Source: Escherichia coli
GTDB lineage: Bacteria; Pseudomonadota; Gammaproteobacteria; Enterobacterales; Enterobacteriaceae
NCBI RefSeq assembly: GCF_003334335.1
Contig: NZ_QOWQ01000041.1
Reading direction: 5' to 3' (one strand)
Length of the DNA: 39,438 nt
In this document: positions 1 to 23,987 of the stretch, piece after piece
Position numbering within the stretch: position 1 is the stretch's first letter
How the letters are laid out: every line of letters starts with the position of its first letter
Notes under the pieces: generated by a model
The model's database searches: none
Told to the model about the DNA's origin: nothing
The model's input: only the letters and a program-made list of their open reading frames with translations
Position numbers and translations under genes: made by a program

Positions 1-468
1 AGTACGGATTTGGGGACGAAAAACACATCGTCGTTTGATTACGGAACCAAATCCACGAATAACACCGGGGCGCATACGCACAGTCTGAGTGGCTCTACGG
101 GGTCTGCCGGTGATCATACTCATGGTAATGGTATTCGTTGGCCAGGAGGCGGCGGTTCTGCGTTAGCATTTTATGATGGCGGTGGGTTCACTTATGTCCA
201 GGATTCACAGTATCAAGTAAGCCCGGGGACTTCTTCCCGTAGATCGTATTATCAACGTATTCAGACACAGTCAGCAGGTGCTCATACCCACTCGCTGTCT
301 GGTACTGCAGCAAGTTCTGGCGCACATGCACATACTGTAGGTATTGGTGCGCATACGCACTCCGTTGCGATTGGTTCACATGGACACACCATCACCGTTA
401 ACGCTGCTGGTAACGCGGAAAACACCGTCAAAAACATCGCATTTAACTATATTGTGAGGCTTGCATAA
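1..468 (+). CDS. stf: Phage side tail fibre protein, C-terminal portion (5' end cut by window edge)
   Basis: Reading frame is open back to nt 1 (no stop before the ATG at 10). Repeated GAHTHSLSG / HxH motifs and the C-terminal ...[24 protein letters not shown] match the lambda Stf-type fibre tip. Directly followed by tfa. Confidence 0.85.
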
Positions 469-1052
469 TGGCATTCAGAATGAGTGAACAACCACGGACC
501 ATAAAAATTTATAATCTGCTGGCCGGAACTAATGAATTTATTGGTGAAGGTGACGCATATATTCCGCCTCATACAGGTCTGCCAGCAAACAGTACCGATA
601 TTGCACCACCAGATATTCCTGCTGGCTTTGTGGCTGTTTTCAACAGTGATGAGGCATCGTGGCATCTCGTTGAAGACCATCGGGGTAAAACGGTTTATGA
701 CGTAGCGTCAGGGGACGAGTTATTTATTTCTGAACTCGGTCCGTTACCGGAAAATGTTACCTGGTTATCGCCGGAAGGGGAGTTTCAGAAGTGGAACGGC
801 ACAGCCTGGGTGAAGGATACGGAAGCAGAAAAAATGTTCCGGATCCGGGAGGCGGAAGAAACAAAAAACAACCTGATGCAGGTAGCCAGTGAGCATATTG
901 CGCCGCTTCAGGATGCTGCAGATCTGGAAATTGCAACGGAGGAAGAAACCTCATTGCTGGAAGCCTGGAAAAAGTATCGGGTGTTGCTGAACCGTGTTGA
1001 TACATCAACTGCACCTGATATTGAGTGGCCTACGAACCCTGTCAGGGAGTAA
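468..1052 (+). CDS. tfa: Tail fibre assembly protein (lambda Tfa-like chaperone)
   Basis: 194-aa ORF; [54 protein letters not shown]... is near-identical to lambda Tfa as I recall it. ATG overlaps the stf stop (TAATG), suggesting translational coupling. Confidence 0.9.
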
Positions 1053-1106: not shown

Positions 1107-1775
1107 CTATTTTTTCCCTGAAGCGGAAAACATTACTACAGTACCTTGAACCTTGGTTTTAACATTCTCGAAATGCTCTGAGAGTATATGTGTTAAGCCT
1201 TCTTCGGAATCTTTTGTGTTTGAAAAGATGCCTTTCTGATTGTAAATGCGCATCAGTTTTTGACCGAAGCTATTGTGCACAACTCCATCGCCAAGAATTG
1301 TGGCTCCGTATAGAGTTCCATCGTCAGTTAAGGCCTGCGCCGCATTGCGTATTACACAGCTTTTTGTAGATATATTTCCAGGCAGGCAGTGAAGAAGGTA
1401 AAACATGGAAATGGAATCAAATTGACCATGTAACGCCGCGGGATAAGGTTCAAAAACATCATGGCTAATTTTATGTTTAATTTTTGATTCCCCAGCCCTT
1501 GTAGATGCCGCGTTCAGGCTAGCTTCGTTCAAATCCATTAAAGATATCAGACTACTCTCAGGTACGTGAGTAAGGTAAAACCCAGTTCCAACACCAATAT
1601 CCAGATGGTTGTTACCTACATGTTCCAGATAGTGTGGAAGAAGGTGTTCCTTTGTAGGACATCCCCATGCAAGCCGATTTGATACTCCCAAAACCCACCA
1701 GTCATAAAGCTTTAGGGTAAGTGGTGTGTAAATTTTAGCCCCATCATCTGTGTTTTTTTTCATTGATTTCACCAT
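1107..1775 (-). CDS. Class I SAM-dependent methyltransferase-like protein (prophage cargo, substrate unknown)
   Basis: 222-aa ORF with a glycine-rich motif I (LDIGVGTGFY) followed by acidic/hydrophobic motifs (SISMFYLLHCLPG, LTDDGTLYGATILG) typical of the Rossmann-fold MTase superfamily. No DPPY/NPPY or PCQ DNA-MTase motif. Looks AT-richer than the core genes. Start may be the first ATG or the MKKNT ATG. Confidence 0.65.
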   Translation of the reverse strand: MVKSMKKNTDDGAKIYTPLTLKLYDWWVLGVSNRLAWGCPTKEHLLPHYLEHVGNNHLDIGVGTGFYLTHVPESSLISLMDLNEASLNAASTRAGESKIKHKISHDVFEPYPAALHGQFDSISMFYLLHCLPGNISTKSCVIRNAAQALTDDGTLYGATILGDGVVHNSFGQKLMRIYNQKGIFSNTKDSEEGLTHILSEHFENVKTKVQGTVVMFSASGKK

Positions 1776-2874: not shown

Positions 2875-3381
2875 TTATTTCTTCGCTTCTACGCCATCAG
2901 TTTCAGAGCGAATTAAAAATTTCTCAGTTGTTTGCGGAATATTCTGAATCAGCCAGTCGGCCATTTGCTTTTCCTCATTTAAAATCGCTTCGATGGTTGG
3001 AATTGAAGCTGTATCACCGGCATTTTTTGCTGCTGCTAATAGTGAGGTGTAACAGGCGATTTCAAATTGCTCGAAGACATATCCGCTAATAGAGCCTTTG
3101 ACTATTTCATCAGAAGGGAATATACCACCGATTGACTGCCCAAGCGCAGCCATTTTACTCATGGAATCTTTAATGACTGAACGTGAAATGTCATTACGAT
3201 CAAGAATAGTTTCCAGTTGAACAATCTGGTTTTTGGTTTCACTAAGATGTTGTTCAATACGAGCGCGTAGTTCAGGATAATTATCTATACGGCTGGCCAT
3301 GGATTCAAGCATAGATTCGGCTTGCTTTTCCATTGCGTGGGCGTCACGTAACCAGTCATGATAATGTTCAATACGATTCAT
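2875..3381 (-). CDS. yciE: Ferritin-like DUF892 stress protein YciE
   Basis: 168 aa, MNRIEHYHDWLRDAHAMEKQAE... recognised as E. coli YciE. Confidence 0.93.
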   Translation of the reverse strand: MNRIEHYHDWLRDAHAMEKQAESMLESMASRIDNYPELRARIEQHLSETKNQIVQLETILDRNDISRSVIKDSMSKMAALGQSIGGIFPSDEIVKGSISGYVFEQFEIACYTSLLAAAKNAGDTASIPTIEAILNEEKQMADWLIQNIPQTTEKFLIRSETDGVEAKK

Positions 3382-11123: not shown

Positions 11124-11153
11124 CAAAAAAAAGCCCGCTCATTAGGCGGGCTG
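11124..11153 (-). terminator. trp attenuator (leader terminator 3:4 hairpin plus U-tract)
   Basis: - strand reads agcccgcctaatgagcgggct followed by TTTTTTTT, between trpL and trpE. Confidence 0.9.
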
Positions 11154-11194
11154 GGTATCTGATTGCTTTACGCATGGTGAATACACTGCCCGTT

Positions 11195-11239
11195 TCAGGA
11201 AGTGCGCCACCAACCTTTCAGTACGAAAATTGCTTTCAT
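11195..11239 (-). CDS. trpL: trp operon leader peptide
   Basis: - strand ATG AAA GCA ATT TTC GTA CTG AAA GGT TGG TGG CGC ACT TCC TGA = [14 protein letters not shown] with tandem Trp codons. Confidence 0.92.
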
Positions 11240-22986: not shown

Positions 22987-23316
22987 TTTCTTGCGTTATT
23001 TTCGGCACCTTTTATGTAGCGAAGGTGCCGGAATATATTCTCTTTTGTTACTTATTTCTATACCGTGCACAATATTTTTATCCCTCATATTTATAGGGTA
23101 AATTACCTGTAAAGTAGTGTCTAATTACCCGCCTCGCAAACTCCAGTTTTCAAATATCTATTTCAGGTCAAAAGATTGAATTATTCACTGGAGACGATTC
23201 GTAAATTCGCTGGATTTTTGACTAAAGTTTCTTTAGGATTTGTCTCATCGTATGATTAATTACACCAATCGTTCAACGTCTTGCTGATAAGTGATGGCGA
23301 TTATATGAGGTTAGCA

Positions 23317-23615: not shown

Positions 23616-23987
23616 TTATCATCATTCTTATTACCCATTTTTAATGAATTAAAGGGCTTTTAATACACCGCAGCAATAACAGCTTGAGTTATCTCAACAC
23701 AAAATAATAACCGTTAAGGGTGTAGCCTATGATCAACACAAATATGAAATATTGGTCCTGGATGGGCGCGTTTTCTCTGTCGATGCTCTTCTGGGCCGAA
23801 CTCCTCTGGATCATTACTCACTGATCCTTGACCCCGCTGCGGCGGGGTTGTCATTTGCTTTGCCACAAGGTTTCTCCTCTTTTATCAATTTGGGTTGTTA
23901 TCAAATCGTTACGCGATGTTTGTGTTATCTTTAATATTCACCCTGAAGAGAATCAGGGCTTCGCAACCCTGTCATTAAGGAGGAGCT

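Follow-up and report, generated by a model that had tools for sequence, protein, structure and literature searches.

A T4 gp37- and lambda Stf-type fibre tip, with conserved legs and an exchangeable apex, at the end of a prophage side tail fibre gene in Escherichia coli

Introduction

The stretch of Escherichia coli DNA analysed here (39,438 nucleotides of contig NZ_QOWQ01000041.1, assembly GCF_003334335.1; hereafter the window) opens inside a gene whose protein carries its histidines in H-x-H motifs. This raises the questions of what kind of protein ends here, which part of it would set adsorption specificity, and whether it is made and used in this genome. A first-pass annotation, made from the letters of the DNA, had taken positions 1-468 for the C-terminus of a side tail fibre protein (Stf) with a metal-coordinating tip that determines specificity and is often exchanged between phages. 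Based on our analysis, we believe with a probability of about 0.9 that the best explanation of positions 1-468 is the distal end of a lambda-type prophage Stf belonging to the T4 gp37 / lambda Stf tip family. This is an ordinary, already described module, since its fold, metal sites, chaperone and mosaicism are all in the literature, and the discovery value of the finding is small. What we add is a map that separates the scaffold from the swappable apex, and a warning that the gene may be a remnant.

The 3' end of a side tail fibre gene

The stf frame is uninterrupted and is open at the 5' edge of the window, so the start codon lies upstream. The features around its end are as follows (amino acids, aa, are counted from the first residue encoded in the window):

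1-468, plus strand: 3' end of stf, the last 155 codons and TAA (466-468), frame 1, by translation
73-81, plus strand: second H-x-H motif, aa 25-27
115-123, plus strand: third H-x-H motif, aa 39-41
283-291, plus strand: fourth H-x-H motif, aa 95-97
325-333, plus strand: fifth H-x-H motif, aa 109-111
352-360, plus strand: sixth H-x-H motif, aa 118-120
379-387, plus strand: seventh H-x-H motif, aa 127-129
468-1052, plus strand: tfa, the tail fibre assembly chaperone gene, whose ATG (468-470) overlaps the stf stop codon

The fragment thus holds six H-x-H motifs, and all 12 of its histidines are inside them. A seventh motif, the first in order, precedes them at Stf residues 829-831, 6-8 codons before the window starts; it was read in AZ155 and B-1109, two close relatives whose sequences are identical to each other over the 746 bases upstream of the window. 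The pattern G-A-H-[TA]-H-[ST] fits four of the six motifs in the window, the remaining two being G-D-H-T-H-G and G-S-H-G-H-T. Both copies of GAHTHSLSG mentioned in the first-pass annotation are present (aa 23-31 and 93-101), as is the 24-residue string that it quoted (aa 107-130). There are also two open reading frames on the minus strand within 1-468 (188-379 and 282-437), which we take to be shadows of the strongly supported plus-strand gene.

The whole gene can be read in AZ155, where a segment identical to nt 1-468 (locus L001, 9001-9468) forms the end of a 991-codon stf, window aa 1 being Stf residue 837 in AZ155 numbering. Pfam places a phage_tail_N domain (PF08400) at residues 1-134 of this protein (E = 1e-71), three Phage_fiber_2 repeats at 462-590, a Collar domain (PF07484) at 761-808 (E = 1.5e-11), upstream of the part that is equivalent to the window, and Phage_fiber (H-x-H) repeats that score weakly; a shaft rich in Ala and Ser is found between 134 and 460. 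The gene order, which is observed directly, is L-K-I-J-lom-stf-tfa, and the prophage is located in ompW beside yciE-yciF-yciG-trp. The proposal that the window begins with the C-terminus of a side tail fibre is borne out by this J-lom-stf-tfa arrangement.

Completeness of the gene in this genome

The alternative that survives best bears on activity in this host and not on the identity of the module. The window may hold a 3' piece of stf in a defective prophage that makes no working fibre, the intact frame reflecting a recent deletion. The complete E. coli genome nearest to the whole window is B-1109, which is collinear with it, without rearrangement, and has 9 mismatches in 39,363 bases. There, a deletion has joined a truncated terminase small-subunit gene to stf at about codon 588 (locus L008, 3838-5468) and has taken out all head and tail genes: 404 codons of stf remain, without the N-terminal attachment domain or the shaft, and the lysis genes are followed by this remnant with no head or tail gene in between. 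Downstream, the window has more remains of decayed phage genes (DinI, a second 3' end of tfa and DUF4376), as described in the last section. However, the window is not identical to B-1109 or to any other of the 5,426 complete E. coli genomes searched, and B-1109 is the only one of these with the terminase-stf junction. The first 3 kb of the window are 99.8-99.9% identical to many E. coli chromosomes, 14 of the 15 best-matching genomes have a full-length stf annotated, and the L-K-I-J-lom-stf-tfa module of AZ155 is complete. The 155 codons and tfa are intact in the window and are identical, or nearly so, to the full-length versions. Weighing these observations, we put a dead remnant at somewhat short of even odds, and the tip may not be made or used in this genome.

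We also noted several database proteins (P0001, P0004, P0005, P0123 and P0125-P0127) in which the fibre tip is fused directly to unrelated N-terminal parts. Read by eye, the fusion partners include a ParB-like N-terminus (P0005) and sequences resembling terminase, portal, tape-measure and J-type proteins, and P0001 consists of the Stf N-terminal domain and the tip with the shaft missing. Such fusions may have arisen in assembly, or they may be genuine products of deletion, as the B-1109 remnant is.

Relationship to T4 gp37 and lambda Stf

Among PDB chains, the only real match to the fragment (phmmer) is 2XGF, the crystal structure of T4 gp37 residues 785-1026 (E = 8e-34), which aligns in two blocks, window aa 1-58 and aa 88-155, with the centre unaligned. 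The fragment matches PHROG 295 'tail fiber protein' at E = 4e-61 and has more than 1,000 relatives in the protein database search. By tblastn, relatives are found in 538 phage records, including Tequatrovirus, Felixounavirus and many T4-like phages, with lambda among the matches at 62% identity. The 14-residue Pfam model Phage_fiber (PF03335) gives four matches at H-x-H sites, all of them weak (i-Evalue 0.004-0.52, none at or below 0.001), and NCBIfam has no model matching Stf or Tfa. RefSeq already lists a protein of exactly this sequence as a prophage tail fibre. We observed nothing that speaks against assigning the fragment to the gp37 / lambda Stf family.

The structure of gp37 provides the frame for reading the fragment. 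Its domain D11 (residues 882-1009) is inserted into the knob domain D10, with a stem made of residues 882-931 and 960-1009 and a tip made of residues 932-959. The needle contains seven iron ions, which are coordinated by histidines from all three chains and are critical for folding. Binding to OmpC and LPS takes place at the tip and requires tip residues, and neither the histidines that bind iron nor many of the residues on the tip surface can be dispensed with (PMC6957217). Lambda Stf has been reported to be structurally homologous to gp37 and to bind OmpC (PMC12617516), and the gp37/Stf tip family, with over 200 members in phages, is described in PMC9659904.

The comparison with the T4 gp37 and lambda Stf tips, which the first-pass annotation had called for, shows that both stem legs and the closing strand align and that the apex does not. 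In the three-way alignment with gp37 and lambda orf-314, there are seven H-x-H motifs (the six in the window and the one just upstream), with gp37 spacing in both legs (32/14 in the outgoing one, 14/9/9 in the return one). The homology and the motif register are direct observations. Together they support the earlier claim of a gp37-type metal-coordinating array, with the metal itself assigned by homology.

The fragment also shares with gp37 the closing strand (16/17 residues), the FDYGTK repeat, the collar upstream and a chaperone gene downstream. It differs in being carried on a siphophage side fibre with another shaft, in having Tfa as its chaperone where T4 has gp38, and in its apex. The likeness to lambda (Ur-lambda) Stf, orf-401/orf-314, is closer. 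The J-lom-stf-tfa order (in AZ155) and the last 17 residues are the same, the collar and stems are 82-91% identical, and Tfa is 94% identical with an equal stop/start overlap. Lambda Stf differs in having eight H-x-H motifs and two FDYGTK repeats, so that its needle is one layer longer, and in having an unrelated type of apex. Because the apex insert is of a different type, the lambda receptor (OmpC, possibly also the O16 antigen) is not transferable to the tip in the window. In the family described in PMC9659904, homology is limited to the last ~215 residues and divergence is centred on the gp37 specificity region, both of which we see here, and an assembly gene of 184-207 codons is directly downstream, as here. 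There is no difference in kind, and the window holds one more allele of the family, common in E. coli prophages.

An alternative is that the tip belongs to another kind of fibre, for example that of a myophage or a tailocin. T4-like long tail fibres and many other phage types carry the collar-and-needle module, as the 538 records indicate, and the same cassette is found on several different upstream segments. Against this, the 746 upstream bases are the same in both closely related genomes and, in AZ155, lead into a PF08400 protein that follows gpJ and lom, and the tfa gene is 94% identical to that of lambda. We therefore consider another fibre kind highly unlikely and retain the lambda-type side fibre.

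Conserved legs and a variable apex

Carrying the domain limits of gp37 (PMC6957217) over to the fragment by alignment divides it into four parts:

1-123, plus strand: outgoing stem leg, aa 1-41, equivalent to gp37 891-931, with the second and third H-x-H motifs and a single SFDYGTK repeat
124-264, plus strand: hypervariable tip cassette, aa 42-88, at the position of gp37 932-959, between H-x-H motifs 3 and 4
265-414, plus strand: return stem leg, aa 89-138, equivalent to gp37 960-1009, with H-x-H motifs 4-7
415-465, plus strand: C-terminal closing strand of 17 residues, aa 139-155, equivalent to gp37 1010-1026, leading back to the collar/knob domain

These parts differ sharply in conservation. 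The outgoing leg is identical at 31/41 positions to T4 gp37 (76%) and at 35/41 to lambda Stf (85%), the return leg at 33/50 (66%) and 41/50 (82%), and the closing strand at 16/17 (94%) and 17/17 (100%). In the tip cassette, identity is 4% to T4 and 13% to lambda, and the length is 47 residues versus 28 in T4. Fourteen of the 17 closing-strand positions (E140-A155 except I146 and F148) are invariant in a 20-sequence alignment (A1). Among 78 non-identical relatives, the flanks from the collar to the third H-x-H motif, and from about T89 (some five residues before the fourth motif) to the C-terminus, match the window protein at 80-90% identity or more, and column conservation in the centre (Stf 878-925) falls below 30%. 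In these 78 relatives, the apex slot is filled by more than a dozen mutually unrelated types of insert, mostly about 32-53 residues long. The type in the window, at 53 residues from H-x-H to H-x-H, is among the longest.

The same boundaries can be seen directly in the DNA, as they can in the protein conservation pattern. Identity to lambda is 80-93% from about position -210 to +90, drops to 13-57% at 121-300, and climbs to 97-100% between nt 391 and about nt 690 of tfa, with the rest of tfa mostly at 93-100%. This mosaic, the diversity of inserts and the occurrence of one tip on several different Stfs (see below) bear out the earlier suggestion that this region is exchanged between phages.

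The two legs vary together in their repeats: the count of FDYG copies in the outgoing leg goes with the count of H-x-H motifs in the return leg. Of the 78 sequences, 64 have one and four, respectively, a class that includes the window and T4, and 11, including lambda, have two and five. Mixed classes (one and five, or two and four) did not occur among the 78 sequences, the three outliers having fewer return-leg motifs. Needle length therefore varies in matched steps, an extra FDYGTK going with an extra return-leg H-x-H. We take this co-variation as an independent sign, at the level of sequence, that the chain goes out and comes back.

The first-pass annotation had located adsorption specificity in the region of the histidine repeats. 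This holds insofar as an exchangeable determinant probably does lie within the region. It does not hold for the repeats themselves, for the H-x-H arrays are the most conserved part and are best read as a structural scaffold rather than as the specificity element. The variable element is aa 42-88, which is the probable receptor-contacting apex by analogy with gp37.

Proposed fold and the role of the histidines

By homology with gp37, we infer a trimer whose three chains would leave the collar side by side (aa 1-41), build a small apical domain (aa 42-88), return (aa 89-138) and end back in the collar/knob (aa 139-155). At each H-x-H motif the three chains would together contribute six histidines, which would hold one iron ion on the axis of the fibre, so that the seven motifs, six in the window and one just upstream, would supply seven ions riveting a thin six-stranded needle. 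The 47-residue insert between motifs 3 and 4 would then be the apex, in contact with the host surface and responsible for adsorption specificity, and folding would need the Tfa chaperone from the next gene. Iron binding, contact with a receptor and dependence on Tfa are predictions here. Recombination that exchanges the middle piece would probably take place in the conserved DNA of the H-x-H legs. This corresponds to the 'His box' idea for T-even phages, in which conserved H-x-H DNA is a plausible recombination joint.

We also attempted structure prediction. AlphaFold2 runs on the monomer (the 232-residue collar plus needle, alignment A1; mean pLDDT 51.6, pTM 0.20) and on a chain of three copies with 30-residue Gly-Ser linkers between them (alignment A2; mean pLDDT 29.2) were both unusable, and for this reason it is from homology to 2XGF that we take the geometry of the trimer and the metal sites. 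Poor models are expected for an obligate, metal-riveted, interdigitated trimer.

A different role for the histidines has been suggested in the 'Trojan horse' hypothesis, which has been put forward for marine phage fibres with H-x-H motifs (PMC11705849). Applied here, the iron held by the motifs would itself be the ligand for a siderophore or iron receptor of the host, and the repeats would mediate adsorption. The idea has a place in the literature, and the H-x-H motifs are strictly conserved in our sequences. However, the irons of gp37 are critical for folding and its receptor contacts map to the tip subdomain (PMC6957217), the known receptors of the family are OmpC, LPS and possibly O-antigen, and the legs are near-invariant while the central inserts differ completely, which is the pattern of a scaffold. 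We find this reading hardly credible, and we keep the histidines as parts of the needle.

The two identical GAHTHSLSG copies share only 17 of 27 bases, and the H-x-H repeats are conserved as protein and not as DNA. A recent DNA duplication is ruled out as their origin by these identical peptides on diverged DNA. That the histidine pattern is a chance or low-complexity artefact, in non-coding DNA or an unrelated frame, is refuted: the fragment is indeed rich in G, S, T and A, but just 4 of 200,000 composition-preserving shuffles reached six H-x-H motifs (mean 0.84), the homology to a solved structure (2XGF) and to more than 1,000 database proteins is strong, and the repeats are kept as protein on diverged DNA, so the several histidine repeats that were first noticed in the Stf C-terminus are real.

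Distribution and alleles of the apex

The apex type in the window is common in E. coli prophages, and the searches described below gave it no relative that has been characterised. Cassette DNA (nt 118-285) is present in 720 of 5,426 complete E. coli genomes (~13%), always at 95% identity or more. In contrast to this abundance, the cassette protein is near-absent from phages, being found in two of 50,697 phage records, near-identical at 94-96% (tblastn, 50-residue query, E up to 1). The names and host entries of these two records suggest that they derive from E. coli strains and are of prophage origin. A phmmer search of 1.84 billion representatives returned no credible distant relatives of the cassette, but only copies at 94% identity or more and four weak matches (P0128-P0131, E = 9e-12 to 9e-4). 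P0130, the one of the four that we read, is an unrelated repeat protein.

One and the same tip and collar is joined to Stfs of 991, 1008 and 1137 residues, which are similar over their N-terminal 500 residues and have unrelated middles. The prophages that carry these three Stfs are at three chromosomal sites, ompW-yciE, potB and yodB-zinT. The tip is also attached to other upstream segments, the junction being at the start of the collar, PIPWPSD.

Among four sequenced alleles, all changes within aa 42-88 are nonsynonymous (Q67K, D68N, G76E and R80S/Y), and synonymous changes are confined to the stems. In the 47 codons of the cassette this amounts to 4-5 nonsynonymous and 0 synonymous changes, which hints at diversifying selection, with counts too small to claim it. 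A further variant, Q67H, is seen in database proteins.

The receptors known from the family are OmpC and LPS for T4 (PMC6957217), and OmpC (PMC12617516), possibly with the O16 antigen, for lambda. Because this apex is common in genomes, near-absent in phages, without divergent relatives and changed by nonsynonymous substitutions throughout, it could represent a receptor-specificity class of its own, with a target other than the OmpC and LPS-glucose of T4 and lambda and with ongoing diversifying selection. We offer this only tentatively and consider it rather doubtful. The map itself has practical value, since it marks the joints for grafting (legs at nt 1-123 and 265-465, apex at nt 124-264). 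Lambda-based delivery particles or T4-like phages would be targets for such grafts, and Tfa is lambda-compatible.

The tfa gene and sequence downstream

Tfa has 194 residues, of which 183 (94%) are identical to lambda Tfa (orf-194), and it matches PHROG 105 'tail fiber assembly' at E = 2e-100. In the T4/lambda tip family, the assembly gene is always directly downstream (PMC9659904). Since Tfa is near-identical to that of lambda and the apex is unrelated, it would act on the conserved parts, and on these sequences Tfa most likely recognises the legs or the collar.

A full-length match to the Rfam family RF02111 'IS009' was found at 811-1009 (223.8 bits, versus a gathering score of 117), wholly inside tfa. 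This model may simply describe conserved tfa coding DNA.

The 3' end of tfa and the sequence that follows it (876-1116) are repeated ~1,049 bases downstream at 1925-2165, with 77-95% identity, the second tfa copy being a decayed 3' fragment. The two repeats flank a class I SAM-dependent methyltransferase gene (1107-1775, minus strand) and a DinI fragment (~1850-1930). The region between them looks like a cargo gene, or like the scar of a second prophage or recombination event. Beyond the second repeat are a DUF4376 fragment with an internal stop (~2197-2466) and a 3' remnant of ompW (2690-2815), which directly precedes yciE (2875-3381). Given this position of the ompW remnant, and the annotation of closely related genomes, the prophage sits in ompW and disrupts it.

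Farther along the window, Rfam detects the STnc180 sRNA at 23656-23858 (198 bits) and the trp operon leader at 11125-11218 (93 bits), both of which are ordinary chromosomal features of the yci-trp region. An IS1 element in AZ155, which the window lacks, breaks the collinearity of the two sequences near window position 23213-23220.
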